Origin: Lentisphaeria bacterium
GTDB lineage: Bacteria > Verrucomicrobiota > Lentisphaeria > Victivallales > UBA1829
Reading direction: 5' to 3'
DNA length: 64,000 bases
Assembly (NCBI GenBank): GCA_017503375.1
Contig: JAFVTF010000067.1
Coordinates: 4,042-68,041 of the forward strand
Within the stretch, counting starts at the first letter, position 1. Each line of letters opens with the position of its first letter. Both the position numbers and the translations under genes were made by a program. Under the pieces are notes generated by a model that did not search any database, was not told where the DNA came from, and worked only from the letters and a program-made list of their open reading frames with translations. Positions 10,107-33,079 of the stretch are shown piece by piece.

Positions 10107-10123
10107 CTTTTTTCTCCTTGAAT

Positions 10124-11935
10124 TTATATTATAGTTGGATTTTCCGGTAAATCAAATGAAAAATCTTCATTCCACAATTTTATATTGTTCTTTTTACAGC
10201 TGACAAGCAGTTCATTTACAGCCCGGATCAATGCTCCGGAGGCTGTCGTGAACCATGGAAGTTTTTTCAGTTCATACACTTCAAAACATTCATAAAAACA
10301 CCCCGTAGAATTTTCTGCGGCATCTTTCAGATATTTCAGAGCCTTCCGGAAATCCCCTCTGCGGATTTCTGCCGTTGCAATCACTCCGGCATACCAGGAT
10401 GAAATGTTTTTTCCGCCGGAATATTGTCCTGCAAACTCTGCAATATTCGCTTCTGTTTCTTCCAGAGCTTTCTGCTGAAGCGGATCTTTCGGGCAGACTG
10501 TCTGATAGGGAAAAATTCCATGATACATTGCAATTGAATTCTGTTTGCATCCGGGATAGGGAACATATCGTTCATTTTCAGCTGGAAGTGCATGGGTCAG
10601 CTCTTCAGAAAGTTTCTTCCATTTTTGCCGGAGTTCATGATCACAATCAAGATATTCCGCTATTTCCGCCGCAGCCCGGAAAACTGCGATCCCGCCGCAA
10701 GTTGTTGAGTACCCCCTTTCAATGAATTCCCCAAAACGTTCCATATCGGTACATTTCCCGATGTATGCTCCGGTAACGGAATCGTAATAAACAGCACTGC
10801 GCCGGTAATATTCTGCGCACCCATGAATCAGCGGATATAACACTTCCGAAAGCAGTTGTCTGTCCTGAAGAAATTTCCAGCATTCCCATGCACTGACTGC
10901 AACATTCGCCATGTGAACATATCGGTCCATCCAGAAGCCCGGCGGGGAACCTTCCGAACCGTCTTCCCGTGTTTCCCACGGATAACGTGCCGCAAGATTT
11001 TCTTTCGGACATATATGAGTATAGCATGTTCTTTGAATCGCATTTTCCAATACGGAAAAACGGAAACGGTCGATTTTTACCGCTTCTTTGAAATGACCGC
11101 TTGTCAGAAATGCTCCGTGTACATAAAATTCATCATAGGCGAAAAATCTGCCTTCCCAGTGTGATGGAAATAAGCCGGTCGGAACAGACCAGGGAGTTGA
11201 GGAAATTTTCAAATGGTATTGTGCCGTCCGGTACATTTTCATAAGAGCTTCATCGGGAATAGAAATCCAGCTTTCATTCCAGTATTTTTCCCATTCAGAA
11301 CAATGCGTTTTATACAGAGTATCAAAGTTTTCTCCTTTTGCTTCATCATCAAAACAGAGCAAAATATCAACGTTTGAATTTTTTGTTGTAATTGCCAATT
11401 CATGATCGGAAGAACAGAATTCTGCATCCGGAGCAATCATTTTTATAAAGCCGGAATGATTCCCGGAATTATATTCCAGCCGATCTGTTCCCTGTTGGAC
11501 AATCTGAATGGAACGTTCTTTCGGAAGATTGTAGCTGAATTTGTATCCCGGAACATCTCCCTCTGAGATGATGTTTTTCCGGATCGCAATGATTTCCCGT
11601 TCTGCATGACAGAAAATTTTTGTATGGATTTCAATCCCAGAGCTGTATTTGACGTTACATTCACAATATGCGTGATCAAGATCGATTGATTGGGAAAATT
11701 CCAGAACATCTCCGCTTTTTTCCGGGGATTGCACAAAATTCCCGAACCGGATCAGATTCATACTCTGATCATTATAACGTTTCCCGGAACGGACGATGAC
11801 CGGCTGCATCCCGCAATATTTCTGCTGCTTCATTTCTCCTTCATAATCGACCATGAAGGATAGTTTCCCGTTTCCCATCGCCAGGGGAACATAATGCCGT
11901 TTCCTTTGACTTTTATCACTGTATGATATTTTCAT
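10124..11935 (-). CDS. GH65-like (alpha/alpha)6 glycoside hydrolase/phosphorylase, no signal peptide
   Basis: [19 protein letters not shown] and [16 protein letters not shown] resemble the GH65 catalytic-domain motifs (FWD.E.F and PW.S...G.E). The start is moved to ATG 11935, which has a GGAG 6 nt upstream. The ORF-track start at 11947 lacks an RBS. Confidence 0.5.
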
Positions 11936-12911: not shown

Positions 12912-14756
12912 TCAGAGCTTTTCAATCGCAATATGAACAGTTAAACCATCTTTTCCTTCAGCGGCAAAGGTGTCATAATGTCCATTCCGGTTCCGGGCAG
13001 GGCGTTTCAGATCGCTGATCGTTCCACCTGTGACTGTATAACGGCAGACATATCCGCCAAATTCAATTTCCAGAACCTTTTCTTTTTGCGTGACTTTTGT
13101 ATTTTCTTCCCCGTTGAACCGGAAGACCGGGAGCAGACAACGTACTTTATTTTTTCCGGAAATCTTGATTTGAAGTCCGTTTTTATCCAGCACATAACTG
13201 CTTGCAACAGTTTGACCGCCGGGGAATTTACATTCCACTTCCGCTTTAGCTGTTTCTCCTGATGCAGAATGGCTTTTCACGGTATGGATAACTTCCTGTT
13301 CCTCTGCATCAATCCATTTTCCGTCAGCAAATATTCCCGGAACAATAGAAAGCATTGCCGGATTTTCTATGTCGACAGTGTAGCTTGATTTTGCAGGGCA
13401 GGGGGTGCTGAGACAAAGTTCAGATGGCGCACCTTTTTTGAGAAGGCGTCCCAAACCGCTGCAATCATAATGATAGTTTGCGTTATAATCATATTGAGCA
13501 GTATATTCCCCTGCATGTAAAAACAGCTGATGGAATTTATCGGAGGTTTTCCAGCTTCTTCCCATGTTATCATTGATTTCTCCGGCTGGGATTGAGTCAT
13601 CGCAAATCCGGTATGCAACATAAAGAAAAGAGGCTGCCGTAATCATGTACTTATCGAAATAAGCATAGTCTTCGCAACCGTACTTTGTATCCAGCGGAAA
13701 ACGGTTTTTGATATGAAGGATCGGAGTTTTTTTCAACCAGCCGGAGATCTTTTCCACGGCGCGGATTGCTCTGGCACGGAATTCTCCGGCAGTTTTCATA
13801 TCGCCTTTTGCGGCAAAGCGTCTCGCATAATATTCCATCATAATGGCTAAATGGGATTCATTATGCAGGAATTGATTGCTCCGTCCGCCGAAGGGCATTT
13901 CACCCGTAACGGATTGCAGGTCAAGTGTCAGCAATGCACTGGAATCCAATGCATCCTGCCAGACTTGCTTATATTTTCCCTGATATCCTTCATGAAGAAG
14001 GATCGCGAAAAGTCCGCGGGTGACAAAATCATAAACTGCAGGTTCCCCCGGATCGCGGTACATCTTGTTTTCATCCAGATGCCGCAGCTGAGAATATGCC
14101 TGCAAATCAATAAAATCCGCATAAGAATCAGCCAATCCCATTTTCTGCCGCATAAATTCGCTGACCATTGTGAATGCCGCCCAGTTGTAAACGATATGTT
14201 CTGTGTCTCTTGCATAAACATTATAACATGTATAGGGATTGATCGTTTTCAAAAGATTTTTCCATTCCTGCATCTTTTCAGCGGGAATCACTTTGCTGTT
14301 TTCCAATTCTTCCAGACAGAAAATGATTTCTTTCACGGAAAAATCATTTGCAGCTTTGACTTTCGGGATCTGCTGACAGCAGAAGTCCATCATCTGAATG
14401 AAAATATCTTTCAGATCCTGTCGTTTTCCATGAGCCATGAGGATTCCGATATTGGCAGTCAATCGGGGAAAACCATGTTCAGTCAACCCTTCTTTTTTGA
14501 CCTGATTGAAATAACGGTTGATGTGTTCCATGCTGTATGCAGAAAGCGTGGTTTCCATCAGATCAAGATAGTATGTCTTTTTCATGATCTTTTCCTTTGT
14601 CTTGATTTTTGCTGATTGTTTTATCTGATCGGAATCTTTGATTGTCTGTGTTTGCAGACCGCATCCGGTAAAGGAAAACAATACAGTGATTCCTGTAAAT
14701 ACCGGAAGGATGAACGCCGTTGATTGGATGAACATTTTCTTTTTGTCCATTTCCAT
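12912..14756 (-). CDS. Hypothetical lipoprotein-like protein, function unknown (possibly a helical-toroid glycan enzyme)
   Basis: N-terminal hydrophobic segment ending in FTGC (lipobox-like). It has its own promoter (14783-14811). ATG 14750 has better AGGAG spacing than 14756. No family recognised. Confidence 0.5.
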   Translation of the reverse strand: MEMDKKKMFIQSTAFILPVFTGITVLFSFTGCGLQTQTIKDSDQIKQSAKIKTKEKIMKKTYYLDLMETTLSAYSMEHINRYFNQVKKEGLTEHGFPRLTANIGILMAHGKRQDLKDIFIQMMDFCCQQIPKVKAANDFSVKEIIFCLEELENSKVIPAEKMQEWKNLLKTINPYTCYNVYARDTEHIVYNWAAFTMVSEFMRQKMGLADSYADFIDLQAYSQLRHLDENKMYRDPGEPAVYDFVTRGLFAILLHEGYQGKYKQVWQDALDSSALLTLDLQSVTGEMPFGGRSNQFLHNESHLAIMMEYYARRFAAKGDMKTAGEFRARAIRAVEKISGWLKKTPILHIKNRFPLDTKYGCEDYAYFDKYMITAASFLYVAYRICDDSIPAGEINDNMGRSWKTSDKFHQLFLHAGEYTAQYDYNANYHYDCSGLGRLLKKGAPSELCLSTPCPAKSSYTVDIENPAMLSIVPGIFADGKWIDAEEQEVIHTVKSHSASGETAKAEVECKFPGGQTVASSYVLDKNGLQIKISGKNKVRCLLPVFRFNGEENTKVTQKEKVLEIEFGGYVCRYTVTGGTISDLKRPARNRNGHYDTFAAEGKDGLTVHIAIEKL

Positions 14757-14782
14757 TTACTCCTGTCTTTTTACTGAAAAGT

Positions 14783-14811
14783 AATATACCCCCTTGAAAA
14801 ATAAATGTCAA
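14783..14811 (-). promoter_or_regulatory. Sigma70-type promoter for the 12912-14756 gene
   Basis: Minus strand reads TTGACA-17 nt-TATATT, directly after the upstream terminator. Confidence 0.55.
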
Positions 14812-14814
14812 GAA

Positions 14815-14851
14815 TAAAAAAGGGATATCTCAGATTTTTTCTCAGATATCC
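14815..14851 (-). terminator. Rho-independent terminator ending the DUF4838 operon (locus 2)
   Basis: Minus strand: ggatatctgaga-aaaaa-tctgagatatcc stem (one mismatch) followed by cTTTTTT. Confidence 0.6.
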
Positions 14852-14908
14852 TATGCTTTTTGAGCTGCAGTTCCGGATCACGGAAAACTGCAGAAGTTTG
14901 AGCGGTAT

Positions 14909-17782
14909 TTACAGGAATTTCAGTGTAACATCAGAAATTGCCGCCGCCTCTGTTCCGCGCATTTTGAAGAAGATCATCAGGAATTTATTCCCTTTCAGAG
15001 CATCCCCCTTTACACGGAATTTGACCGGTGCAAAACCTTTGTTGGAAACCGGACGTGCCCAGAGAACATTCTGCCCCGCAACCCAGTTATTCTTCTTCCA
15101 TTCGTAGATGATTACACCGATTTTACCGGATTTACTTTCCGCCGGACGCGCCGCATTCAAGGTCACTTCCATGACGTTTCCGGGTTTTTTGTTCCAGTTG
15201 AAGAGATAATGTCCGATGGTATATGCGTTCGGATTCCGGTTGACCATTGCTGTTTTTCCGAACAGTTTTTCATGGGTCGATTTTTCACGGGGAACGATCT
15301 TCGCAGAAGAAATTTTCTTTTCCCGTGTTTGTGATTTCTGCGCGGCAGCATCGCCAATCCGGATCAGACGGATATCTGCAATATACAGAGGTTCATTGAC
15401 TTTGAACCGGGATGGACGGATAATGATATTCGCTCCGGTATGCCGGGGAAGAACTGTCGCAACCTGTGTGAAAGTCTGCCATTCATTTGCCGGAATGCGG
15501 ATCTGCCGCAGATCTTCCCATGCGTTGTTGACTCCGTTGGTGCAGACCCAGAGGGAAAGATCCATGATCGCCTGCTGTGATTTTGACAGAACCTTGAGCG
15601 ATACCGCCCAGATTCCGGGATCAAGTTTCTCCGTGATCGTGAATGAAACGATATGACTCAACATGATATCATCCGGATTCGGTACTCCGTTGGGATGCGC
15701 CGGAAGGAGCTTGAGAGTCTTTTCGCCCTTGTAAAGCACTTCACTGGTAATTTCATAAGGAACTGAAGTTTTGATCTTCATTACACTTACCGGTTTTTCC
15801 AGTTTCGGGTTGGAGAAATAATTTTTGGCTTTATCTCCCTGAGTAACAAGAGAAATCATTTCTTTGACCGCCTTCGGCATATCCGGCAGAGCGGAAAGAG
15901 CTTTCAATCCCTCCTGAACTTCTTTGTGTTCCATAAAACGCAGAGATTTGAGAAGTCCGGCAGAAAGTAGTACTGAGGCATCCGGCTCATATAATTTCCG
16001 GGTGATATAATACTGTTTTGCTTTTTCATTAGAAAAATCCGCATTGGTGAAATAAGCAGCGGCACGTTTATGTTGAGCAATCAGACGCGGAAACTCCTTT
16101 TTCAGGAAATGAAAGTATGCCAGTGTATCTTTAACATTTTTGAATTCTCCGTTATCTGCTGCCCGGTATGCCATTCCTTGGAACGTTGCAATACAATCCA
16201 GATTTTCCATTTGACGGACAAGCAGGGCAGCACGGGCTTTTTCTCCGGGTGTTTTTGCCAATGTTTCCACTTTGAGCGCAAGGTCAAGCAGTTCTTTGGT
16301 GAAGCCCGGTTTCAGCGCAAACATGTGGTTTTCATTCGGATACATGTAAATATAGTTCCGTGCGCGGAAGATGGGTGTCTTTTTCATTTCTTCGGAAAGC
16401 CAGTAATTTTCGCACTTCTGATAGAGTTCTTTCAGGTACGGAGCGGCTGCTTTTCCGGCATAGCGGTTATACCACTCTTCCAGAAGTTTTTCCGGATCTG
16501 CATTGATATCTTTCAGAAGATTTGCAACAAGATAGGTCTTCGGACCGTCAAGAGCATCTGCCATACGGGAGTTTTCTCCGAAATAGGCTCTGCCGCCGTT
16601 GGCATAAAGATATTTCAGCAACGCAGCATGATTCTTGAAGTTCACGCGGGGGACCAGAAAGTTTCTGCCCCAGCAGTAATCCCAGATCCCGGTTTCTTTG
16701 ACCATTTTCCCCCACTCATTGATCACTCCCCAGTGACGTTCCTTTACTTTCGGATCCAATGCTCCCAGAACAGAATCCAGAGTCATCATGGGAACCACAT
16801 TTTTGTGAACCGGGAAATCCGGAGTCATAATGGTTCCGGTATAAGCGAGAATACCGATCCGGAGATCAGGATATTCTTTACAAACTGCTTCTGCAACACG
16901 GTTTACAAATGTGTAATAACTGTTCGCATGATTCTGTCTGTCATTGACAAATATTCCCTTGCGAAGCCCTTTATTCATGTTCTTGCAGCTTTCACATTCA
17001 CAGAATCCGCTATTGTCGTTGACGCCCAATGTGATGGATTGCGCCGGTCGTTTTTTCAAGATCTCAAGCGTATTTTTTACAGCTTCTTTTGCGGTCTCCG
17101 GATTGGAATAACAGGGTTGCCAGTTATTATAAATATTTGCAGGCGGTTTCACCAGTTTTTTTCCGCGGATGACCGGCATAATTGCAGCGGGCCAGCCTTT
17201 CCGGTATTTATGCGGCGGAAAAGAATAGACAGGAATCCCATGCGTGTATTGGAATTTTCCATTATCATAAAAACCAAGTTCCACAAGGTGATTCGGGAGC
17301 AGCCAGGTTGAACGCCGCAGAGAAAAACCTTCTTTGGATTTCATCGGTTCTGTCGGAACCTGAACATTTTTCATCGGTTCATACTGGAACATGCAATTTT
17401 CGATTCCGAGAAAACGGGTGTCTGCTCCCTTTTCCAGAACAGCATTCAACGCCTGAAATATGGAGGTGTCCGTTGCGGTGATCTTCATCACTTTTTCTGA
17501 CGGAAATTCGATTTCCCAATTGAAATGAGTTCCCAGTTTCGGATTCTTTTCCAGCACGACCTGAATGGTGTACGGAAGATTTTTATTTGTCTTCGGTAAT
17601 TCCGTTCCTGTGACTTTTTTCAGATAAGAGTTAAAAAGATCAATATGTTCAAGACTTTTTTCATCCGTATCTTTTGCCAGTTGAATTTGAGCGGTCGGTT
17701 TTGCATTTTTGACCAGATGGAATTCTGCAGCGGTCAATCCGCTGACAGCCAGCAATCCCATCAATAAAATTTTATGTTTCAT
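14909..17782 (-). CDS. Secreted DUF4838-type putative glycoside hydrolase (paralog of 6358-9297)
   Basis: Signal peptide. AEFHLVKNAKPTAQIQLAKDTDEKSLEHIDLFNSYLKKVTGTELPK opening. AGGAGG RBS. Confidence 0.6.
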   Translation of the reverse strand: MKHKILLMGLLAVSGLTAAEFHLVKNAKPTAQIQLAKDTDEKSLEHIDLFNSYLKKVTGTELPKTNKNLPYTIQVVLEKNPKLGTHFNWEIEFPSEKVMKITATDTSIFQALNAVLEKGADTRFLGIENCMFQYEPMKNVQVPTEPMKSKEGFSLRRSTWLLPNHLVELGFYDNGKFQYTHGIPVYSFPPHKYRKGWPAAIMPVIRGKKLVKPPANIYNNWQPCYSNPETAKEAVKNTLEILKKRPAQSITLGVNDNSGFCECESCKNMNKGLRKGIFVNDRQNHANSYYTFVNRVAEAVCKEYPDLRIGILAYTGTIMTPDFPVHKNVVPMMTLDSVLGALDPKVKERHWGVINEWGKMVKETGIWDYCWGRNFLVPRVNFKNHAALLKYLYANGGRAYFGENSRMADALDGPKTYLVANLLKDINADPEKLLEEWYNRYAGKAAAPYLKELYQKCENYWLSEEMKKTPIFRARNYIYMYPNENHMFALKPGFTKELLDLALKVETLAKTPGEKARAALLVRQMENLDCIATFQGMAYRAADNGEFKNVKDTLAYFHFLKKEFPRLIAQHKRAAAYFTNADFSNEKAKQYYITRKLYEPDASVLLSAGLLKSLRFMEHKEVQEGLKALSALPDMPKAVKEMISLVTQGDKAKNYFSNPKLEKPVSVMKIKTSVPYEITSEVLYKGEKTLKLLPAHPNGVPNPDDIMLSHIVSFTITEKLDPGIWAVSLKVLSKSQQAIMDLSLWVCTNGVNNAWEDLRQIRIPANEWQTFTQVATVLPRHTGANIIIRPSRFKVNEPLYIADIRLIRIGDAAAQKSQTREKKISSAKIVPREKSTHEKLFGKTAMVNRNPNAYTIGHYLFNWNKKPGNVMEVTLNAARPAESKSGKIGVIIYEWKKNNWVAGQNVLWARPVSNKGFAPVKFRVKGDALKGNKFLMIFFKMRGTEAAAISDVTLKFL

Positions 17783-17803
17783 CCTTGATTCCTCCTTTGT
17801 ATA

Positions 17804-18568
17804 TTATTCTGAATAAGTGAAAATCGGGGCAGATGGGGGTTGAAACGTTGTTGTATTGGCCCAATGGAATTCACCTCTGTGGCTGACTGTATTACCGGCA
17901 ACAGTCACGACATTATCAACACCCTGGTGGTGGGAATCCGGCTTATCTGTCAGACGTCTGGTATTATATTCTGCCAAACCATATATATTGGGATTTGATT
18001 GTGCTGCATAACTGTGAGTATCTGTCATAAAAATTATTTTTGAAGCTGGAACCTTTGATTTCCCAAGTTTATAAGGGGAATAGAATTTAGGAGGCGCCTG
18101 AAAATATCCCAGCAATTGGTTTACAGTGTAGCTTCTGTTGATAGTTTTTCCGCCTTCCTTCTGGAACTCATAATTATACGTTCCGTTGGCAACCATACCG
18201 ACACCCCGGGAACGGTCACCCGGACAATCGAAAATTTTGATGGAAACTCCTCCTCGTTTGATGTCGGTGTAACCGGCATAATAAATGGTATGGAAAGGCG
18301 AGAGTTTTGCATGGGTAGATTTATTGTATGCAATCGGGAAAAAATCATTCTGGTCACCGGCATAGGATGTAAAAACCTGATGCGCCTGTTTCAGATTGGA
18401 AATACAGGATGCACTGATTCCCTTTGCTCTGGATTTGTTCAGAGCCGGAAGCAGCATTCCCGCAAGAATTGCAATGATCGCAATAACCACGAGCAATTCG
18501 ATCAGCGTGAAGCACATGTGCTTCATGCCTGTACACAGGCATGAACCGTTGTTCTTTGACATTTTCAT
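17804..18568 (-). CDS. Prepilin-type N-terminal domain protein, H-X9-DG family variant (H-X9-AG)
   Basis: [30 protein letters not shown]-terminal [12 protein letters not shown]. The start is set at ATG 18568 (MKMSKNN...), preceded by AAAGGAAAC. The ORF-track start at 18613 is an upstream extension. Confidence 0.8.
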
Positions 18569-18720
18569 AATGTTTCCTTTCTTGTTTGTTATTATAAAAA
18601 CAGTATACGACACTGCATCAAAGATTCCGGAAATCTTTGAAATCGTTTCTCCGGTGATATTTTGAAAAACCCCGGTTATACTTTTTTTCTTTCAAAACGG
18701 AACGTTCAACGCTGTCAAAA

Positions 18721-20103
18721 TCACTCGTAAAAACGCAAAACGTTCTGAATGACTTTATCTTTCGTGATCGTTCCATTCAAATATTGCTCAAAATAAGGCA
18801 TCATGGCACAGCCCACCGGAGTCGGATAACGTTTCGGGTTCTGACGGCAGCGGGCAAAATATTTCAATAATTCCTTTTCAGGAGCAATATCAATAGTAGA
18901 AATGGATTCTGTTCTGACAGGAGCGGAATGCAGTTTTGTCCAAATTTCATCCTGAACAGATTTTGATAAGAGGTATTCGATAAACAAGAGTGCATGATGA
19001 ATGTTTTCAGAATGTTTCCCGATCCCGATCATACCGCTTCCACCCCAGTAATAACAGTCTTTCCGCGGGTTATGATAAATCGAAGAAATATATTGTTCTT
19101 CTGCAGTAATTCCGGTTGAGAATACAGAATTTGAATAGGAGGGAACACAGAACACATTCATTTCAGAATTTCCATTCAGAATTCCCCAGGAGATTTCATT
19201 TGTCATGAAGACATTTTTTCTCTCTTTGACCAGTTCGATCCGGTCAAAGACAATATTACAATGTTCCCGGATGATTTCCGGAGTAAAATCCACAGGAACA
19301 CCCAGATCGCGGCAGATATCATAATAGAGATTAAAAACCGGATATTTTTCCGGCAGAAACTGATTCACTTTCCGGAGCATTTCTTCCATCGGCATATTTC
19401 CGGCGGAAACACCATCGAATAAATGAAATTGTTTCAGCCATTGGACACGCTGAAATGTGAACATGTAAGTGTACGCATATTCATTTTGCAGCGGAAATGT
19501 TTCGTTGAGCATTCCGGAAAGAAACTCATCAGAATGGAAAAGTTTTTTCCAGGAAGGCTTGACTGGCATCAGCTGGTCCAGGTAACTTTTTGCCTGGAAA
19601 ATAGGTGTCGGCATCACTGCCAGATCAAAATTCCCGGACTGAAAATAATCCCAGTAAGAGGTATCGATACTTTCAAAATTATTACAGTATTGAGCTTTCA
19701 GATGCACCGTGGGAACCAGTTGATTGAATTTTTCGATTAATGAGTTCCAGAAATTGATCTGATCAGGCTTCGTCTCCGGAAGGAGGAGCGTCATGCTCTT
19801 ATTCATAGATCCGGTAACTTTATTATATGCACCACGTGGTGTATTGTTTTCTGCTTTTTTGTGATTGACATAGGTTTCTTTTCCGCGCCGGACCAATCTT
19901 CCGGATTCCAGAAACGGTTCCAGTGCTTTGCGGATCGTCCGCCTGTTCACTTTGATTTCCGCTGCAAGTTCACGTTCCGATGGAAAACGCATATTATGTT
20001 CAGATTTAAGGATCCAGTAATGAAACTGGTGTCTTAAGATCAGATAAAGCGGCTTGTCTGTCCGATTTATATAGAAAGGCTCTTTCAGTATTTCCGGAAT
20101 CAT
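18721..20103 (-). CDS. One-component regulator: GntR-type winged HTH fused to an ABC-type sugar/solute-binding-protein-like domain
   Basis: N-terminal FPSERELAAEIKVNRRTIRKALEPFLESGRLVRRGKETYV (GntR HTH). The C-terminal ~370 aa include WGGSGMIGIGKHSENIHHALLFIEYLLSKSVQDEIW, typical of family-1 extracellular solute-binding proteins. No signal peptide. Confidence 0.7.
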   Translation of the reverse strand: MIPEILKEPFYINRTDKPLYLILRHQFHYWILKSEHNMRFPSERELAAEIKVNRRTIRKALEPFLESGRLVRRGKETYVNHKKAENNTPRGAYNKVTGSMNKSMTLLLPETKPDQINFWNSLIEKFNQLVPTVHLKAQYCNNFESIDTSYWDYFQSGNFDLAVMPTPIFQAKSYLDQLMPVKPSWKKLFHSDEFLSGMLNETFPLQNEYAYTYMFTFQRVQWLKQFHLFDGVSAGNMPMEEMLRKVNQFLPEKYPVFNLYYDICRDLGVPVDFTPEIIREHCNIVFDRIELVKERKNVFMTNEISWGILNGNSEMNVFCVPSYSNSVFSTGITAEEQYISSIYHNPRKDCYYWGGSGMIGIGKHSENIHHALLFIEYLLSKSVQDEIWTKLHSAPVRTESISTIDIAPEKELLKYFARCRQNPKRYPTPVGCAMMPYFEQYLNGTITKDKVIQNVLRFYE

Positions 20104-20125
20104 AAAAAAATCCTTGAATTTATTG

Positions 20126-20148
20126 CACCATATACACCAACTGCACCA
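20126..20148 (-). promoter_or_regulatory. Three TGGTG pentamers at 9-bp period in the regulator leader (candidate operator)
   Basis: CACCA on the + strand at 20126, 20135 and 20144, located between the -10 box and ATG 20103. Confidence 0.4.
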
Positions 20149-20155
20149 TGAAGAT

Positions 20156-20183
20156 ATTATAGCATGAATATTTTATTTGTCAA
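20156..20183 (-). promoter_or_regulatory. Sigma70-type promoter of the locus-2 regulator
   Basis: Minus strand reads TTGACA-16 nt-TATAAT. Confidence 0.6.
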
Positions 20184-20203
20184 GAAGGGAAAATAAAAAA
20201 ATC

Positions 20204-20256
20204 TCAAAAAAAAATGGCTCAGTTCCCAAACAAGGGCCCTTGATTGGGAACTGAGC
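20204..20256 (-). terminator. Rho-independent terminator (ancestral yggU terminator, now behind the inserted gene)
   Basis: 13-bp arms gctcagttcccaa / ttgggaactgagc around a GGGCCC-centred loop (20217-20256), followed on the minus strand by a run of 9 T. Confidence 0.8.
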
Positions 20257-20257
20257 T

Positions 20258-20365
20258 ATAAAAAAACGGAAAATCAAAGATTTTTATTGAGTTCCTGCTG
20301 CAATATTGGGATTGTCCGAACATGGCTGATTCCGCAGACTTTCACGACTTTTTTCCGGGATGTCT
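20258..20365 (-). pseudogene. Displaced duplicate of the yggU 3' end (direct repeat copy A)
   Basis: About 90% identical to 22171-22277 (about 10 mismatches and 1 indel by hand alignment). It still reads in frame as TSRKKVVKVCGISHVRTIPILQQELNKNL*, but has no upstream coding body. Confidence 0.75.
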
Positions 20366-20468
20366 TTGACAAACTGTTTGAATATATGCTTTCGCAATAA
20401 ATGAGTTCAAATTCAAGGCAACTCTTTTTATCCGATCAGTACAAGTGTAAAAACAATCACCGGAACAT

Positions 20469-22052
20469 TTACTTCATAATCAGCTCATCTTCCCAGCCGA
20501 TGAGATTGCCTTTTTCTGAATCAAAGTTCACTCCGATGATGTAGATTTCCCGTTTGTCAAGCAAATACTTTTTATAGTATTCTTTTTCCTTGATCTGTTC
20601 CAATGCTGTCGGATCGTTGTCGAGTTTGAATTCAAAGATGAATATAGCATCTTTGGTCTGCACCACAGCATCTATTCTGCCGTCATTGGTTGCTGATTCT
20701 GCTTCAATATACAATCCAAGCAAGCGGAATATGGAGAAAAAGATTGTCTGGAAAGTCGATTCCTGCTTCTTGTGTGAAGTATAAGGAATTCCGGCAAAGA
20801 ATACTTCCATTGCTTTGCGGAGTTTTTTCAAATCCTTATTCAACAAAGCCGTTGCTATTTCAGCAGTAAACTGCACTGACACAGTTTGAGTCTTGCCGGC
20901 ATAACTGTTCAGAATGTAGGCACTGAATGCTCCTGCGACCTCACGGTTGGGAAAATCCAGAAAATACCAGGTCTGTCCGAAACGTTCTTCGGTTCCTTTT
21001 ATTGTAATGTAGCCTGTTTGCAGCAGTAACGTCAACGGGTCGATATTATCGATTTCAAAGGCATTGAATGCAACTTGCGGTACAGCGTCTTTCAATGCTG
21101 TCTCGAAATTAAAATCTTTTTGCTTGGTCAGCTCCATCAAAAATGATGGTGTTCCGGTGGAAAACCAATAATTATTGAATTCTCCACCATTTTCAAAGAA
21201 GTACGCCAGAGACACGGGATTATAAACCGTTTTTGCATTTTTGTGGAATCGATAACCGTTGTACCAATTTTTGATTTCAGTTTTGTATACTTCTATATCC
21301 GTCTCTCCGGCAAGAGCCGCAATGCGGTCGTCGAAGTTTGCTTCCAACTCGTCCTGGGTATAACCAAACATCGTTGCATAACGGGCATCCATAGTGATAT
21401 CCGTCAGATTATTCAAATCAGAGAATAATGAAACATGACAAAACTTACTGACTCCGGTAATAAAAACAAAACGCAACATGCCGTTTTTTTCTTTTATCAC
21501 AGAGTAAAATGTCCTTAATGCTTCAAGGAAACGAGAACGTTTTTCTTGAGTTATATTGTTGAGAATAGGTTTGTCATACTCATCCAGCAGTATGACAACA
21601 TCACCATCTCTGTCATGTAATTTCTTTATCAAAACATGGAACATTGTATCAGAAGATGATACCTGCAGTTCTATATTATTGATGCTTGCCTGTTCAAGAA
21701 GCATTTGCTGAAAACGCTCTTCCATTTTTTCGAGAGTACTGAAATCCCGCCCATTCATATCCAAATGAATCACAGGATGTTTTTTCCAGTCATAAGGTTT
21801 GTCATAGATGGCAAGCCCTTTGAAAAGTTCTTTTTTGCCTTCAAAGAGTGCCTTCAGTGTAGACACGGTGAGAGACTTGCCAAAACGGCGCGGACGTGAC
21901 AAAAAATACATTCCCCGGGCAGGTCTTATCAACTGCCAAATGTATTCTGTCTTATCTACATACAGGAAATTTCCCTGTATCAGGTCTTCAAAATTGTAAA
22001 CACTGCTGGTAATATCTTTCATGGTATCTACTCCCGTTGCTGTAATATACAC
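20469..22052 (-). CDS. Predicted AAA-ATPase (N-terminal) fused to a PD-(D/E)XK nuclease-like domain (C-terminal)
   Basis: FEDLIQGNFLYVDKTEYIWQL...YFLSRPRRFGKSLTVSTLKALF is the hallmark opening of the 'predicted AAA-ATPase' family. C-terminal GRIDAVVQTKDAIFIFEFKLDN...ALEQIKEKEYYKKY is PD-(D/E)XK-like. Confidence 0.85.
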   Translation of the reverse strand: MYITATGVDTMKDITSSVYNFEDLIQGNFLYVDKTEYIWQLIRPARGMYFLSRPRRFGKSLTVSTLKALFEGKKELFKGLAIYDKPYDWKKHPVIHLDMNGRDFSTLEKMEERFQQMLLEQASINNIELQVSSSDTMFHVLIKKLHDRDGDVVILLDEYDKPILNNITQEKRSRFLEALRTFYSVIKEKNGMLRFVFITGVSKFCHVSLFSDLNNLTDITMDARYATMFGYTQDELEANFDDRIAALAGETDIEVYKTEIKNWYNGYRFHKNAKTVYNPVSLAYFFENGGEFNNYWFSTGTPSFLMELTKQKDFNFETALKDAVPQVAFNAFEIDNIDPLTLLLQTGYITIKGTEERFGQTWYFLDFPNREVAGAFSAYILNSYAGKTQTVSVQFTAEIATALLNKDLKKLRKAMEVFFAGIPYTSHKKQESTFQTIFFSIFRLLGLYIEAESATNDGRIDAVVQTKDAIFIFEFKLDNDPTALEQIKEKEYYKKYLLDKREIYIIGVNFDSEKGNLIGWEDELIMK

Positions 22053-22170
22053 CTCTGGAAATGCTTTTTCAATTGTTTGTTCCTGAAAAAACGCTTTTTA
22101 TTGAAGAGATGAGCCGAAACGGAATTGTTTTGAATAAAGCTCCGCTTTAGAGATGCTGGATACTTTGTTC

Positions 22171-22277
22171 ATAAAAAAACGGAAATCAAAGATTTTTATT
22201 GAGTTCCTGCTGCAATATTTGGATAGCCTGAGCATGGTTGATTCCGCAGACTTCCACGACTTTGTCCCGTGATGTCT
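22171..22277 (-). repeat. Direct repeat copy B (functional yggU 3' end plus 15 nt downstream)
   Basis: See copy A. The pair brackets an 1805-bp segment that carries only the AAA-ATPase/PD-(D/E)XK gene. Confidence 0.75.
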
Positions 22278-22509
22278 GTCCGGAATGAAGAGAGACTGAG
22301 GATTTTGATAAATCAAGAATATCTGCCAGAAAAGCACAGAGTGCCGCATTGGCTTTCCCGTCAACAGGCGGAGTGTTGAGAGAAATTTTAACAGCAGAAC
22401 CATGCATTCCGCGGATTCCCTGTTTTGAGGCTCGCGGTTGAACCCGGCAGGCAATCCGCACTATGCCGGGTTCAACTTGAGTAACTGCTGATTCTACAGA
22501 TTCAGCCAT
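22186..22509 (-). CDS. yggU: YggU/DUF167-family protein
   Basis: PRASKQGIRGMHGSAVKISLNTPPVDGKANAALCAFLADIL motif. ATG 22509 overlaps the ftsH TGA by 1 nt (TGATG). The ORF-track start at 22512 is a GTG. Confidence 0.8.
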   Translation of the reverse strand: MAESVESAVTQVEPGIVRIACRVQPRASKQGIRGMHGSAVKISLNTPPVDGKANAALCAFLADILDLSKSSVSLHSGQTSRDKVVEVCGINHAQAIQILQQELNKNL

Positions 22510-24566
22510 CACACACTTTCCGGTGGAATCGGTTCTGTTTCAGCAGGAATTTCTTCAGCCGGGATCTCTTTCACGAGTTCCTGTTTGGGCTGAGGCATAT
22601 CAAGCAGTTCATAAACCTGAGCTGCATCAAGGGTTTCTTTTTCCAGCAGAGCTTCTGCAAGTTTATCCAGCTTGTCACGGTGTTCCGTAAGAATATTCCG
22701 GGCGGAATCCATTGCTTCATCCACCAGTTTCTTGATTTCCAGGTCAATGATCCGTGCAGTTTCTTCACTGTATGCTTCACTGCGGGTGATGTCTCTGCCG
22801 AGATAAATATGATCGGACCGTTCTCCATACTGGATCGGACCGAGTTTGTCACTCATACCGAAAGCACAAACCATGGCACGGGCAACTTTTGTTGCGTGAG
22901 AAATATCAGCAGATGCACCGCTGGTGACATCCGTGAAAACGATCTCTTCCGCTGCGCGTCCGCCCATGTCGACTTTCATCAGATCTTTCATTTCCAGCAT
23001 ACTCTGGGAGTAACGGTCTTCTTCCGGAACCATCATTGTCAAACCGAGAGCCTGACCGCGGGGAATGATCGTGACTTTATGGAGCGGAACGGAATGTTCG
23101 CAGAAAATATTGACAATGGTATGTCCTGCTTCGTGCCATGCAGTGAGACGGCGTTCCCGTTCGGGGATCAGACGGCTCTTGCGTTCTCTGCCGAAACAGA
23201 CTTTGTCGCGTGCTTCTTCCAGGTCGTGCTGGTCTGCTGCTGTTTTGTTATAACGGGCAGCAAGGAGAGCCGCTTCATTGATCAGATTTGCGAGATCCGC
23301 ACCGGAGAATCCGGAGGTGGAACGGGCAACAGAATCCAGATCAACATCCGGAGCAAGTTTGATATTTTTTGCATGGACATCAAGAATCTTGCGGCGTCCG
23401 GCAATATCGGGATAGTCAATAACGATCTGGCGGTCGAAACGTCCGGGACGGAGCAGGGCAGGGTCAAGGACATCAGCTCTGTTTGTCGCAGCCAGAACGA
23501 TCACGCCTTCCTGTGTTTCCAGACCATCCATTTCCACAAGCATTGCGTTGAGGGTCTGTTCCCGTTCATCGTGGCCGCCGCCGATTCCGGAGAAACGGGA
23601 GCGTCCGACAGCATCGATTTCATCAATGAAAATCACGCAGGGAGCATGTTTTCTTGCCTGTTCAAACATATCGCGGACACGGCTTGCACCGACACCGACG
23701 AACATTTCCACGAAGTCGGAACCGCTGATGGCGAAGAATGCCACTCCGGCTTCTCCGGCAACAGCCTTTGCCATCAGAGTTTTCCCGGTTCCCGGCGGTC
23801 CGGTGAGCAGGGCTCCGCGGGGAATCTTGCCGCCGAGCAGTTTGAATTTCAGCGGATCTTTCAGATAATCCACGATTTCTTTGGTTTCTTCCTTTGCCTC
23901 ATCGCAACCTGCAACATCGTCAAAAGTCTTGCTGTTTTCGCCGGGCAGGATCATTCTGGCTCTGGATTTGCCGAAATCCGTTGCATTTTTTCCAGCCATC
24001 CGCATCTGCCGTGCAAAGAGAAAATAGAGCAGCCCGATGACAAGAATCCCGATCACAACGTTTCCGAGCAGGGATTTCCACCAGGAATCCCGTTCCAGAA
24101 TATTGGTTTCAACTTTCTGCAGACCTTCCATGACAGCCGGAGTTTTGATGACCCGGGTACGATAATAGTTCTTGGTCATTTTCAACTCTTCCGGAGTATC
24201 AGAACTTTTGGTTTCCCCGGTCAGGTCGGTACCGCGTTTCTTCGCAGGGACAGTAACCTTCTTATCACCTTCTGCTTTTTTATTATCAACGGGAGCTGCC
24301 AGTTCTGTTTTATCATAGACCCCTTCGATTTGAAGGACATCTTCCGTTTCGGGGAGAATGACGGCGGTCTTGATCCATCCTTTGCTCAGCCAGCTTTCAA
24401 ATTCTGACTGGGAAAGATCTTTGGAGTTTGCAAGAGAGGGCGTGAACTTGTAAATGAACAGAGTCACGATCATAACGAGAACGAGCAGCCAGATAAAAAC
24501 AGCTGCGGGCGGTCTCTTAGAGGGCATGCCTCCCTGTGGAGGCGGATTTTCCTGTTTGTTACTCAT
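22509..24566 (-). CDS. ftsH: ATP-dependent zinc metalloprotease FtsH
   Basis: N-terminal TM segments, Walker A GPPGTGKT, the AAA second region of homology, and the HEAGH zinc motif. Confidence 0.95.
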
Positions 24567-24633
24567 AAAAAAATATCCTGTTGCTGGCGGGGGAACGTCT
24601 GCTGAAAAAAATAATAACTGTTGTTTTTAATGA

Positions 24634-25140
24634 TTACAAAACGCGGCTGAAAACTACAATTCCGAGAACCAGAAGCGCGACAAGAAGTACACCAATGATT
24701 CCGACAAGGATGATACGTTCCTTTTTATCGGACGGGGAGGTTGAAACCGGAGCTGAACCGAGATTTACAGTGTCAAGATCAATATCTGTAATCGTGATAC
24801 CAGTGGAGGTCTTCTGAGTTGTGGTGGAACGGGAACCTTCCTTGTTATCGGCATCAAAGAGAACTTCGATTCCGCCAAACTGAATGATATCGCTGTTCAT
24901 CAGTTCCTGTTCAGAGACAGGAACATTATTGATACGGGTTCCGTTTGTGGAGTTATTATCGCGCACGATGAACGTTTCTCCGGAACGGATGATATCGCAG
25001 TGATGGGAAGAAAGAGAGGAATCTTTGATACAGATATCCCGCTCATCAGATCTTCCGACTGTATAAAAATCATTTGTAAGCTCGAACTGTTTTCCTCTGA
25101 ACTGAGAAGAAAGTACGATTAATTTTGGTGTACCTGCCAT
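24634..25140 (-). CDS. FHA-domain protein with a C-terminal transmembrane anchor
   Basis: YTVGRSDERDICIKDSSLSSHHCDIIRSGETFIVRDNNSTNGTRINN FHA signature. C-terminal IILVGIIGVLLVALLVLGIVVF. AAGGAG RBS. Confidence 0.8.
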   Translation of the reverse strand: MAGTPKLIVLSSQFRGKQFELTNDFYTVGRSDERDICIKDSSLSSHHCDIIRSGETFIVRDNNSTNGTRINNVPVSEQELMNSDIIQFGGIEVLFDADNKEGSRSTTTQKTSTGITITDIDLDTVNLGSAPVSTSPSDKKERIILVGIIGVLLVALLVLGIVVFSRVL

Positions 25141-25423
25141 AATACAAAACTCCTTAGATATGGCTGAATGCAGCTCATTCGCCGTTATTCGTTATTATAA
25201 TCGCTTTCACAGAAAGATAACACAATTCCTGAAAATTTCAATGTCAAAATTAATTAAAATTAAAAAAAAATACGGAAAATGCGCAGTATGGTCTCTTCCT
25301 TTACATGAAACAGCATTTTATTCTCTGCAAAATAGAAGTACCGTATACCGTAAAGTTTGATAATAAATGACGGATTTATCAACAAAAACAGTATGGTCAA
25401 ACAAGTACAGAGACAAAAGTTGT

Positions 25424-27964: not shown

Positions 27965-28111
27965 AACCCCAAGATGGCATTTTGATTTTTGCGTTGCAAA
28001 AATCGGAATGCCGCAAAAAGGTTTGAAAAAGGATGATAGGGTTCGGGGAAGAAGGAAAAAACTTTCCTTAAAAGTTTTTCCCTTCTTCCCCGATTACAAA
28101 TCAACCTTTAT
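27965..28111 (+). repeat. Copy 2 of the ~150-nt two-hairpin intergenic repeat
   Basis: About 90% identical to 6166-6316. Hairpin 1 is 27976-28012 and hairpin 2 is 28045-28091. It also lies between convergent genes. Confidence 0.8.
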
Positions 28112-28157
28112 CAGGTACCTGTTGCCTGAATTTTTTAACGATTCAGAATAACAGGGA

Positions 28158-29381
28158 TTACTTTTTGTTTCTGGTGATGTTTTCCGGAATCGAACGGGCT
28201 GTTATTTTTGCAAATTTAAAATCAACAGCCCCTTCACGGAAGAACGGTTTTAATTCTTCCGGTACAACATTAATTCCTTTGTTATGCATGATGTTGTTGG
28301 AAATCTGGAATCTGCAATTTTCCATTCCCCGCGGATTTTTCTTCATTTCAGCCGGGATATTCAAAGAAGGATCGCAAACGATCAGAGGGATCCCGCCGAT
28401 TGCATAACAATCCCGGATTGTCAGCTGCATAGGTATTGCAAAAAGACGGACCAGTGCACCGTTTTCCCGGACAACCTGACCGCATGCTGTAAGACAATTC
28501 CGGAGGACCACTCTTCCTCCGTCCGAATGCGGATGGATCGCAGCTGCCTTTGCATAATTGTAAACTGCCGGGATTCCGCCGCCTTCACCGCCGAAACGGA
28601 CACTATCCGCCTCAAAACGGTCGTAATTATCCACCCAGCGGGCATTGTGGTAATAATCCTGTCCCTTGGGCGGATTTGCGCTGGGGGTCAGACAGCAGAA
28701 TGAAAGCCTCATGGTTCCGTACCGGTTGATAAATGCAGCTCCATCGGTCATGTTCGGCTGTGTCTGATCAACCCAGCAGTTGCGGATCTCCATCAAATCT
28801 CCGAAATTTTGCACACAACGGAAATTCTTGGAGAAGAGACATCCCTCGATCAAAGACTGACAGGACAGGTGAGAGATTCCTCTGGGCGGTTCCAGTTTGA
28901 CTGCCATCTCTGAGGCATAAAGAAACTGACAATCCCGGATCGTGACCATAGTCTTATCCAGATTTCTGTTTGTTACCAGAACCTGAACTCCTCCACCGAG
29001 AAATACCAGCTTTTCAATCCGGTTTCTGTATGCATTGATCTGGAACATCAAGCCGTTTTCCGCACCTGCCCATTTGAGAACAGCGGTCGTGTTTGAACCG
29101 GACATATTCACGAAACCGGAGACATTGATCGTGGACGTGATTTTATAAACACCGTGAGGAAATACCACGGTTGGCCCGGAGCCGAAATAACTGGATGCCG
29201 GATATTTTCCATAAGACCTGAATCCTCTCACAGATTTTGCCGCCGCATCAAATGCCTTCTGGATTGCTTTCGTATCATCAACCTGTCCGTTTCCGACAGC
29301 TCCATATTTTTTTACGTTGAATCCTTCGCCAAAGGAACAGAGTGTGCAAAGACACAGCAGGGTTATAAAAATTCTTTTCAT
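28158..29381 (-). CDS. Secreted right-handed beta-helix protein (pectate-lyase-superfamily fold), unknown specificity
   Basis: Signal peptide. FNVKKYGAVGNGQVDDTKAIQKAFDAA opening typical of beta-helix glycan enzymes. Shares RFGGEGGG..AVYN.AK with its upstream paralog. Confidence 0.65.
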   Translation of the reverse strand: MKRIFITLLCLCTLCSFGEGFNVKKYGAVGNGQVDDTKAIQKAFDAAAKSVRGFRSYGKYPASSYFGSGPTVVFPHGVYKITSTINVSGFVNMSGSNTTAVLKWAGAENGLMFQINAYRNRIEKLVFLGGGVQVLVTNRNLDKTMVTIRDCQFLYASEMAVKLEPPRGISHLSCQSLIEGCLFSKNFRCVQNFGDLMEIRNCWVDQTQPNMTDGAAFINRYGTMRLSFCCLTPSANPPKGQDYYHNARWVDNYDRFEADSVRFGGEGGGIPAVYNYAKAAAIHPHSDGGRVVLRNCLTACGQVVRENGALVRLFAIPMQLTIRDCYAIGGIPLIVCDPSLNIPAEMKKNPRGMENCRFQISNNIMHNKGINVVPEELKPFFREGAVDFKFAKITARSIPENITRNKK

Positions 29382-29395
29382 ATTTTATTGTACCT

Positions 29396-31039
29396 TTATT
29401 TGGTAAAAAGCGGTTTTTTGTTCAAACCGAATTCATGGATTTCCAGGACACTTCCGGGTGCAGCAAGTTCATATCTGTGCGGAATCTTGCCCTTACGGGG
29501 ATGGTATTCCTGTCCAATGTAATAAATCCGGAATGTCAAAGTCCGTTTTCCTTTCAGAGCAGGAACAGCTTTGGCGACATTTACTTCCCGTTTTCCGATG
29601 GGAAGCTGGCGCACGAAAAATGTGTACAGCTTTCCGGTTGCTTCATCAACCATTTTAACTGCAAATTCGGCCGGCTGACTGGAACGTACATCCATCGTCA
29701 GATAAGGGGTTTTACTGAAATCAACTTCCACATGTTTGACTTCAACAAAGGGGGCATCTCCATTTTTTCCGGAAAGACGGCGCATCAAACAGACCGGATA
29801 ACTGTCTTTATGGAAGACTGCAAGGAGGTCTCTGTTGTAAATCGCAGAACCGTCCATGTAGTTATCAAAGGAAAGTTTTACACCTTTCATGGTCAGAATA
29901 TTGATTTCACTTTTCGGTTTGATGGAGGTGACTTTGTATTCTTTGATCTTCTTTTCCAGTTCTTTGCCTGCCAGATGACCTGCCGGCATGGGGAGAGGAT
30001 TTACCTTTGCTGTCTGCAGGTCTGCCGGAATGACGAAACCTTTGAATCCCACATTTCCGTGAGCATGGAAGTTAAAGACATTTTTTTCGCCGAAGAAATA
30101 GTTGTCCAGCTTGATTGCAGGATTCACAACCACGCCCTTGCTGAATGTGGAATGGCAGTTTTCGATTGCCACAAGGTTCGGAACTTCCACGCAGTAAACT
30201 GCACAGTTCTGCAATCCGCTTGTATGGGCATCCACTTCACATTCCCGAAGTACGACAGTATTGGGCAGAGTGGGCAGTTTGGAATATTTTGCGAAATTAT
30301 AAACAGCAGTAAAACCGCCGCCTTCACCGCCGAAACGGCAGTTCGTTGCTGTGAGCCGTCCGTAGTTGTCGATCCAGCGTTGGCTCTGTCCGTTGCAGAG
30401 GGGAACACCGAGAAGATTGTCAACGGTCATATAACCGTGACGGTTCACGATGACAGCACTGTTTTTCATATCCTTATTATTCATGATCCATACATCCCGG
30501 ATCACGGTCCAGTCGGAATCGCTGTCAATGGAACCGATACAATGAATGAATTCACTCTTTTCAATGGTAAAAAGTGTGCTTTGCGCGCCCTTGCGTGTCA
30601 TGAGAGCGGTTCCGGTACACCAGAAAAATTTACAGTTTTCCACAAAGAAAAGAGATTTATCCAGGTTGTCATTGACTGCGGCAATATGACCTTTCCCGCC
30701 TTTGAAGACCAAACCTTTCACGGAAGCGTGCCAGAAGTTGATATAATCAAAGGTCGTTGCCTCCGGGTCCTGCTGAACAATGACTGCATTGTTGCCCCGC
30801 AGAGAAACCCGGTCAACTTTCAAAGTTCCTTTCACCAGATAAACTCCGGAGGGGAAATAAACGGTTTGGGGATTGTATGGATCACGGATCTTTTTTGCCG
30901 CGGCTTTCAGCGCGGCAGCGATCGCTGCAGTATCATCTTTTTTACTGTCTCCGGCTGCCCCGAAATCTTTCACATTGATTTCTCCGGCAAACAGTATTGC
31001 AGCAAGTGCTGCAGCCAATACGGTTAACAACTTTTTCAT
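29396..31039 (-). CDS. Secreted right-handed beta-helix protein (paralog) with a C-terminal extension
   Basis: Signal peptide. INVKDFGAAGDSKKDDTAAIAAALKAAAK opening. RFGGEGGGFTAVYNFAKY motif. AAAGGA RBS. Confidence 0.65.
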   Translation of the reverse strand: MKKLLTVLAAALAAILFAGEINVKDFGAAGDSKKDDTAAIAAALKAAAKKIRDPYNPQTVYFPSGVYLVKGTLKVDRVSLRGNNAVIVQQDPEATTFDYINFWHASVKGLVFKGGKGHIAAVNDNLDKSLFFVENCKFFWCTGTALMTRKGAQSTLFTIEKSEFIHCIGSIDSDSDWTVIRDVWIMNNKDMKNSAVIVNRHGYMTVDNLLGVPLCNGQSQRWIDNYGRLTATNCRFGGEGGGFTAVYNFAKYSKLPTLPNTVVLRECEVDAHTSGLQNCAVYCVEVPNLVAIENCHSTFSKGVVVNPAIKLDNYFFGEKNVFNFHAHGNVGFKGFVIPADLQTAKVNPLPMPAGHLAGKELEKKIKEYKVTSIKPKSEINILTMKGVKLSFDNYMDGSAIYNRDLLAVFHKDSYPVCLMRRLSGKNGDAPFVEVKHVEVDFSKTPYLTMDVRSSQPAEFAVKMVDEATGKLYTFFVRQLPIGKREVNVAKAVPALKGKRTLTFRIYYIGQEYHPRKGKIPHRYELAAPGSVLEIHEFGLNKKPLFTK

Positions 31040-31070
31040 TCAAGATATCCTTTCAAATTGCTTTTGTATT

Positions 31071-31793: not shown

Positions 31794-31918
31794 TTTTCTC
31801 TCCTGTTATTGTTATTATTCTGATGACATTTTTTGGGTCTGTTGACGGGTTCTGTTCTTTTTGAGCAGTCTCATGAGAATATCCTTTCTATGACCTGCGG
31901 CAAAAACACGATGATTTC

Positions 31919-31946: not shown

Positions 31947-31985
31947 TTGGCATTTTCAAGCTGCGGCGTATTTTCTTCATTTTTA

Positions 31986-33044: not shown

Positions 33045-33079
33045 ACTGAAAAACTCCTGAAAATATTTCGTACAACACA

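Follow-up and report, generated by a model that had tools for sequence, protein, structure and literature searches.

How did a single gene come to stand behind the housekeeping gene yggU, and why does an orphaned second copy of the yggU 3' end lie on its far side? The question is raised by a locus in a 64,000-nucleotide stretch of DNA (the window, taken at its full length) from a Lentisphaeria bacterium (GCA_017503375.1, contig JAFVTF010000067.1, positions 4,042 to 68,041). Here 1805 bp with one intact gene, a member of the DUF1703 family, are enclosed by two direct copies of the yggU 3' end, and we conclude that this is a real, fairly ordinary recombination scar in a gut Lentisphaeria genome, with no working mobile element. 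As to its origin, we favour a Campbell-type insertion (a single reciprocal crossover) at the yggU 3' end with host homologous recombination as the catalyst, an explanation whose chances we put somewhat short of even. The parts of the repeat are the following.

22186..22509, minus strand: yggU (DUF167), intact, 107 aa from ATG; PF02594, 92 bits
22220..22279, minus strand: copy B arm, native yggU sequence, carrying all mismatches to copy A
22170..22219, minus strand: copy B core, the last 11 codons, the stop codon and 16 nt up to a T-run
20308..20367, minus strand: copy A arm, degenerate yggU-like sequence, differing from copy B at 11 of its first 59 nt
20258..20307, minus strand: copy A core, equal to the copy B core plus one T

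Copy A (20258-20367) and copy B (22170-22279) align over 108 nt with 89.8% identity and one 1-nt indel (E=2.5e-35); alignment and BLAST extended the bounds returned by a repeat search of the window (20261-20365 versus 22173-22277, 88% identity). The direct repeats of about 107 nt and 90% identity, with some 10 mismatches and one indel, that an initial annotation had aligned by hand are thus real, the mismatches numbering 11. Both boundaries are shared exactly by the two copies, the repeat begins at an AGACATC common to both sides, and BLAST found no third copy in the window or at any unrelated locus. The same arrangement is present in at least 8 independent metagenome contigs and is therefore not an assembly artefact. 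Copy B consists of the final 31 codons of a live DUF167/YggU gene and 16 nt ending in the T-run, as the initial annotation had proposed for this 3' end, and the ratio of non-synonymous to synonymous divergence (dN/dS) of yggU against its orthologues is 0.07-0.24. Copy A translates as ...KTSRKKVVKVCGISHVRTIPILQQELNKNL* with in-frame stop codons just upstream, and it does adjoin a strong terminator hairpin (20214-20259); its earlier description as an orphan remnant beside a terminator was correct.

The differences between the copies are distributed very unevenly. All 11 mismatches fall in the first 59 nt (the arm, 19% diverged), so that the last 50 nt (the core) are free of them, a split with p ~0.001 under a uniform spread, and the two cores are identical save for one extra T in copy A. 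Relative to copy B, the copy A arm has 9 non-synonymous and 2 synonymous changes, which gives proportions of non-synonymous (pN) and synonymous (pS) differences of 0.20 and 0.14 for the arm itself, and of 0.13-0.20 and 0.10-0.14 for copy A. Because pN is at least as large as pS, and because the change D82K hits a residue invariant in 19 YggU sequences, copy A is a pseudogene fragment, which by these measures evolves free of constraint and is non-functional. The copy B arm is native yggU sequence: contig L020 is 100% identical to the window over 22313-22254, across the 5' boundary of the repeat, and similarity is lost only at 22223. The initial annotation had pictured an element that brings its own replacement copy. 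Since the copy B arm is native, a whole copy supplied by an element, with copy A as the untouched original, does not fit.

The locus is a recombination mosaic among diverged lineages. In contigs L126 and L127, most of the compared 3' part of ftsH, the gene upstream of yggU, has 72-83% identity to the window, with a 93-98% patch near 22700-22820; at about 22463, inside yggU, identity rises to 97-100% and stays so up to and including the beginning of the DUF1703 gene. From this step in identity it follows that homologous recombination with a breakpoint inside yggU moved a segment between lineages. L020 (Lentisphaerae bacterium SIG79; 1-10144) is 98.3% identical to 28067-32870 and 72-87% identical across 12.9-25 kb (12912-25162; FHA-ftsH-yggU and a 600-aa gene). 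Its step in identity coincides with a dispersed repeat at 28.07 kb, and the explanation is either a divergent haplotype imported by recombination or a chimera, since L020 is a low-coverage contig of a metagenome-assembled genome. Within the DUF1703 gene of L125 (97% identical overall), a 72-83% patch at 21170-21347 interrupts otherwise 98-100% identical sequence; the pattern resembles gene conversion by a different allele or a paralogue of DUF1703.

Two classes of yggU tail were recognised among the contigs. Class I (...QILQQELNKNL followed by the T-run) is found in the window, L125-127 and L016, and accessory DNA always comes after it; class II (...TILQQEVDQNS) is found in L020, L021 and L008 and adjoins a gene of about 600 aa. 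The boundary between arm and core (22219/22220) lies within 3 nt of the point at which class II tails diverge (22223). Three unrelated sequences were seen to follow the T-run, their starting points no more than 2 nt apart, namely the block with the DUF1703 gene and the scrap of a small gene (orf52, see below), the block that begins with the hairpin, and the L016 tail. The core itself can be read as holding an imperfect 9-nt inverted repeat with a 9-nt spacer, GGAACTCAA-N9-TTGATTTCC.

The L016 tail (4067-4204, also in L017 and L018) is a third sequence type after the same core, with an 11-nt inverted repeat and repeated GTGCATT motifs, and three independent assemblies of the L016 type end within 150 nt after yggU. 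The YggU of L019 (6001-6351) has 116 aa and a longer, differing C-terminus, ...DKLTGSEGRGFLL, which is a further sign of repeated rearrangement of the yggU tail.

The comparison with relatives required the region further downstream, which includes these features:

14757..20204, minus strand: lineage-specific second block, with a GntR-like regulator (18721-20103), a prepilin-like protein (17804-18613) and a DUF4838 protein (14909-17782), from Pfam and NCBIfam
12912..14756, minus strand: 614-aa gene, whose homologue (~70% amino-acid identity) stands directly after yggU in relatives

The organism belongs to the Lentisphaeria of gut or rumen. All 9 contigs with an identical YggU carry the insert. 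In L020, L021 and L008 (YggU 84-91% identical), yggU is followed at once by a gene of about 600 aa, the homologue of 12912-14756, and in the more distant L019 such a gene lies about 150 nt after yggU. Relative to these four contigs, 14757-22185 (7.4 kb) is lineage-specific and comprises the DUF1703 block and the second block. The initial annotation had envisaged an empty site in related genomes, with yggU directly followed by the hairpin. Relatives without the insert do exist, but they have a differing yggU tail and also lack the next 5.5 kb (14757-20204), hence 7.4 kb in all, and yggU joined straight to the 20214-20259 hairpin was absent from the contigs of YggU and DUF1703 relatives examined. 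A displaced class II tail was sought upstream of the 614-aa gene and not found; in the terminator upstream of that gene, 24 nt (14816-14839) agree with the end of the yggU core at 19 of 24 positions, which was judged to be generic terminator composition.

The DNA between the two repeat copies has these components.

22102..22169, plus strand: scrap of a convergent 52-aa open reading frame (ORF), here called orf52, 69 nt, with its last 16 codons (...EEMSRNGIVLNKAPL*) at 22103-22150
22044..22072, minus strand: promoter-like site of the DUF1703 gene, TTGAAA-17-TATATT
20469..22022, minus strand: DUF1703 gene, 517 aa, intact; AAA-ATPase_like PF09820 at 191.3 bits and PDDEXK_9 PF08011 at 70.6 bits
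20368..20468, minus strand: 101-nt spacer between the DUF1703 gene and copy A, kept in L125

Both domain scores exceed the Pfam gathering cut-offs (26.1 bits for PF09820 and 25.5 bits for PF08011), and the DUF1703 gene is the only intact gene in the 1805 bp. The single AAA-ATPase/PD-(D/E)XK gene read there by the initial annotation is therefore confirmed, the 69-nt scrap of a small gene lying beside it. The variant Walker A motif RPRRFGKS (R43-S50), the Walker B motif DEYD (D147-D150), D451 and E464/K466 are invariant in 42 homologues. Judged by its sequence the protein is a member of the DUF1703 family, and its activity as an ATP-dependent nuclease is only predicted. The dN/dS of the gene is 0.20 against a 97% identical strain and 0.07 against an 88% identical paralogue, and these ratios indicate that it is under purifying selection. 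The family, with PF09820 and PF08011, a variant Walker A, a Walker B and a D...E-x-K motif, was described by Knizewski 2007 (PMC1913061), and in Cardinium it has undergone expansion and intragenic recombination, its function being unknown (PMC6387759). The member in the window has the same domain architecture, RPRRFGKS, DEYD and an intact PD-(D/E)XK motif as this multi-copy, recombining family, and has no feature that distinguishes it from the rest. More than 8000 family candidates were scored; among the matches listed, many were 71-97% identical, and most were on contigs of 2-4 kb from Lentisphaeria and Kiritimatiellia.

The initial annotation had suggested defence-system searches with this protein. 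These gave no PADLOC model match, only sub-threshold nuclease-domain matches to PDC-S41 and Cas4 (E=0.003-0.008), and nothing usable from NCBIfam. An AlphaFold2 model was poor (predicted local distance difference test score 59) and had no Foldseek match in the PDB at E<=1e-3; Foldseek and PDB sequence searches returned only insignificant ORC-like and nuclease-like matches. As for traits of transposons, insertion sequences or miniature inverted-repeat transposable elements (MITEs), the ends have no inverted repeats, the duplication is 108 nt and not short, and the paralogues have no common non-coding ends. Conserved cassette ends for DUF1703 units were likewise rejected, the non-coding flanks matching nothing outside the same lineage. 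The 101-nt spacer had no homology in L123, L124 or any other locus, no open frame and no integrase remnant.

The insert is itself composite. The orf52 gene is intact in L126, whose YggU is 96% identical to that of the window; after copy B, L126 matches the window only to 22102 and continues with the rest of orf52 and other small ORFs. L127 has the same YggU as L126, yet runs on into the DUF1703 gene like the window. The nearest paralogue at another locus, in L123, has 88% amino-acid identity with a synonymous divergence (dS) of ~1.0, and its homology is confined to the stretch between 22074 and the stop codon; paralogues in general have in common only the gene and about 50 nt of promoter. By this comparison the DUF1703 gene and its promoter came in as a bare unit, whose left junction lies inside orf52 and is illegitimate. 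Given that junction, the DUF1703 segment is cargo or a later replacement and not the maker of the repeat.

The occupant behind yggU in L126 (843-1689) is a different one from that of the window, with a 52-aa membrane-like ORF convergent with yggU and tightly packed small ORFs. No match was found for it when two of its proteins were searched in viral contigs, its DNA in phage records and its proteins in PHROGs, while a protein search gave 5 homologues, all without a functional name. The 50-nt core had no match in viral contigs either, and an origin from a phage or mobile element was dropped on these grounds.

Duplicated flanks were also sought at other DUF1703 genes. We scanned 80 metagenome DUF1703 loci for flanking direct repeats at the nucleotide and protein levels, with random placements as controls. 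Repeats were found at 5 of 71 testable loci versus 10 of 308 random placements by nucleotide comparison, and at 5 of 60 versus 12 of 235 by tblastx, which is no enrichment in either case; flanking repeats as a general rule for DUF1703 genes are therefore rejected. One locus, L071, has a 72-nt CN_hydrolase 3' end duplicated on both sides of the DUF1703 gene (892-960 and 2628-2699). Most differences between its copies are synonymous, as they should be if the copies were two diverged alleles, and the downstream copy begins at the DUF1703 stop codon; L071 is a true parallel. Elsewhere, L092 has a 38-nt terminator hairpin duplicated around a DUF1703 gene (2723-2760 and 4536-4573), and in L112 a 118-nt palindromic MITE-like repeat flanks another (979-1094 and 3106-3221).

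The geometry of the repeat leads us to one reciprocal crossover, in which the yggU tail of the chromosome recombined with an incoming copy of that tail, or to a one-sided variant of it. Incoming DNA with its own copy of the yggU tail would have recombined with the chromosomal yggU inside the 50-nt core, probably with RecA as the catalyst. The crossover would leave the native gene whole, its arm and core now forming copy B, and the second copy, a foreign or degenerate arm with the core, would be pushed against the old terminator as copy A. The DNA may have entered as a circularised fragment by a single crossover, or through homology-facilitated illegitimate recombination ('C-terminal displacement'); the circular or one-sided intermediate is one that we infer. 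What remains of the insert would then be a mosaic remnant, the 69-nt scrap of a convergent gene followed by a 1.74-kb segment with one promoter-equipped DUF1703 gene, and this gene would be passive cargo under purifying selection and not the agent of insertion.

For the catalyst, we lean slightly towards host homologous recombination on DNA from diverged relatives over a dedicated integrase, because the mosaicism is visible, no recombinase was found, the L071 case exists and there is experimental precedent. No recombinase (integrase, resolvase or transposase domain) was found in the 32 ORFs checked from 0.6 to 57 kb, which agrees with the description of the insert by the initial annotation as a non-autonomous unit without an integrase. 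In E. coli, circular DNA that integrated by a single crossover left 109-950 bp of the homologous locus duplicated (PMC3240628), and at type VI secretion system (T6SS) and rhs loci the orphaned 3' ends behind newcomers were attributed to homology-facilitated illegitimate recombination (PMC5361080). Several points weigh against a crossover of this kind. The copy A arm already looks non-functional while the core is perfect, so that plain recombination needs later gene conversion or a constraint on the core. In experiments, single crossovers through short homology and homology-facilitated events occur only rarely. The coincidence of the arm/core boundary with the class II divergence point to within 3 nt, and the start of three downstream sequences within 2 nt after the T-run, are what the attachment (att) core of a site-specific system would give. 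Neither the donor arrangement nor the empty site was recovered among the contigs examined.

The main competitor is the idea of the initial annotation, a decayed element of the integrase type, which we consider possible but somewhat improbable. The 50-nt core would have served as att core for a family of elements that insert at the yggU 3' end and bring a new tail to replace the old one, and what is left would be a remnant like a cis-mobilisable element (CIME); copy B would be attL and copy A attP/attR-like, the integrase and most of the element having later been deleted or replaced by the DUF1703 segment. Much of the anatomy is consistent with this, namely an identical 50-nt core inside diverged arms, the imperfect 9-N9-9 inverted repeat, a core boundary coinciding with the class I/class II breakpoint, three occupants at one junction (orf52/DUF1703, the hairpin block and the L016 tail), class I tails always with accessory DNA while class II tails adjoin the next core gene, the tightly packed small ORFs of unknown function adjoining the core in L126, and three assemblies that break within 150 nt after yggU. 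The enzyme, on the other hand, left no trace in the 32 ORFs or, as a recombinase remnant, in the 101-nt spacer; core and L126 proteins went unmatched in viral contigs, phage records and PHROGs; no displaced class II tail lies upstream of the 614-aa gene; and the second block, with its regulator, pilin-like protein and DUF4838 protein, is a module of ordinary chromosomal type, of which the window has further examples. Of the attL/attR geometry first proposed, the att-like anatomy (repeats, identical core, reused junction) therefore stands and the integrase does not, which leaves it plausible and unproven. Homologous recombination between diverged lineages reshuffles this locus, and the same geometry can arise from it without an integrase.

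Two other routes were weighed. A local tandem duplication of the yggU tail by replication slippage, followed by an unrelated insertion between the copies and decay of copy A, would account for the exactly shared boundaries and for that decay, but it calls for two independent events at one spot and explains neither the mismatch-free 50-nt core beside a 19% diverged arm nor the differing occupants after the same junction in other strains, and is quite improbable. We give even less credence to the DUF1703 protein inserting its own gene, by which the AAA+/PD-(D/E)XK nuclease would cut near gene 3' ends and homing-like repair would leave a long target duplication. The very large and diverse family (over 8000 candidates scored, the matches listed mostly on 2-4 kb contigs), paralogues sharing only the gene and about 50 nt of promoter, the duplications of upstream 3' regions flanking L071 and, more loosely, L092, and the Cardinium expansions with intragenic recombination (PMC6387759) are in keeping with such an activity. 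The lack of flanking-repeat enrichment (5/71 versus 10/308; tblastx 5/60 versus 12/235), the failure to find a near-identical copy in any other context (at other sites the nearest paralogue has dS ~1.0), and the left junction of the gene segment, which lies 69 nt from copy B so that the duplication is not at the gene's own boundary, all count against it. More broadly, it is unlikely that the 50-nt yggU tail is the att core of undescribed small integrative cassettes of gut Lentisphaeria or that DUF1703 genes self-insert with long target duplications; such cassettes, if true, would exchange one gene, or a short set of genes, at the site behind yggU.

The host-mediated crossover that we favour can be compared with known systems. 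Prophage e14 and phage 21 integrate into the 3' end of icd in E. coli, encode an integrase and measure 15-40 kb. As in those cases, the window shows insertion in the 3' end of a conserved gene that stays functional, and an orphan 3' fragment at the far end; in contrast, the insert here is 1.8 kb with one chromosomal-type gene, no recombinase was found, and the arm of the live copy is native. CIMEs are att-flanked remnants without an integrase, defined by mobilisation in trans by a cognate integrase. The flanking att-like repeats, the small size and the absence of a detected integrase resemble them, but no cognate element was recovered. With C-terminal displacement at rhs and T6SS loci (PMC5361080), our locus has in common an upstream gene as anchor, an old 3' end kept downstream, mosaicism and no integrase, whereas the displaced tails there encode toxins with immunity genes and are selected, and here the fragment is 31 codons of a housekeeping gene without evident function. 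The closest match in geometry and in size of duplication (108 nt) is to the E. coli single-crossover circles (PMC3240628), which need no dedicated recombinase, although theirs is an experimental plasmid system and ours is read from the genome.

Base composition contributed little. The DUF1703 gene has a G+C content (GC) of 39.7%, against 44.5% for the window; among stretches of its length (1554 nt; mean 44.4%, sd 3.0) it stands at the 5th percentile. Its third-position value (GC3) is 0.429, within 1 sd of the 42-ORF mean of 0.456 (sd 0.045); its GntR-like neighbour is similar (41.1%, GC3 0.434). The hand counts behind the low G+C first reported were numerically right, but the contrast was overstated, ftsH, the gene used for comparison, being a GC outlier at 50.7%. 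With GC only mildly low and GC3 normal, composition says little about foreign origin, and we rejected a compositional anomaly as weak evidence for it.

On the minus strand the order of the locus is ftsH, yggU, a 118-nt spacer, the 517-aa gene, the 101-nt spacer, copy A, the hairpin with U9 and the GntR-like gene, and two further features complete it.

22509..24566, minus strand: ftsH, upstream gene of the operon; Pfam Peptidase_M41, AAA and FtsH_ext
20205..20259, minus strand: intrinsic terminator, hairpin 20214-20259 with 23-nt arms, then U9

The hairpin has a folding energy of about -29 kcal/mol, with z=-4.85 for the folded 106-nt stretch containing it, and L125 departs from the window at its centre (20238). 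Its first arm matches the end (AGCTCAGTTCCCAATCAAGG-like) of a dispersed repeat, some 150 nt long and containing two hairpins, present in the window at 6165-6330, 27965-28125 and in part at 6082-6135, without an Rfam match; the repeat also occurs in L020 (4935-4979), L021 (13378-13540) and L001-L003 (402-435). Rfam gave no RNA family at the locus. A consensus promoter, TTGACA-16-TATAAT, precedes the GntR-like gene (18721-20103). A module of a GntR/AraC-type regulator, a prepilin-like (N_methyl) protein and large glycan-enzyme-like proteins (DUF4838 or pectate-lyase-like) recurs at 6358-10106, 14909-20103 and 28158-33080, and the block adjoining copy A is one such ordinary chromosomal-type module. 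Elsewhere in the window, a 138-nt direct repeat of 90.6% identity (56739-56875 and 58810-58946) at the 5' ends of the minus-strand ORFs 56108-56887 and 58233-58928 probably reflects their paralogous N-termini, and a flavin mononucleotide (FMN) riboswitch (Rfam RF00050, 84 bits; 48582-48727, minus strand) lies upstream of ribBA (47293-48510).

The locus is a clean, well-delimited case of a gene added behind a housekeeping gene with the old 3' end kept as a fossil, and it comes from gut Lentisphaeria, a poorly studied phylum known only from metagenomes. The slot behind yggU is strain-variable and exchanged by recombination among diverged lineages, and genes of the very large DUF1703 family, whose function is unknown, move about as a gene with its promoter and nothing more. 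If the 50-nt core were a true attachment site, it would be a new integration target, through which the elements belonging to it could be traced. For the present the locus has local and descriptive value, as a recombination-prone slot taken by an unremarkable member of a large family that is uncharacterised.

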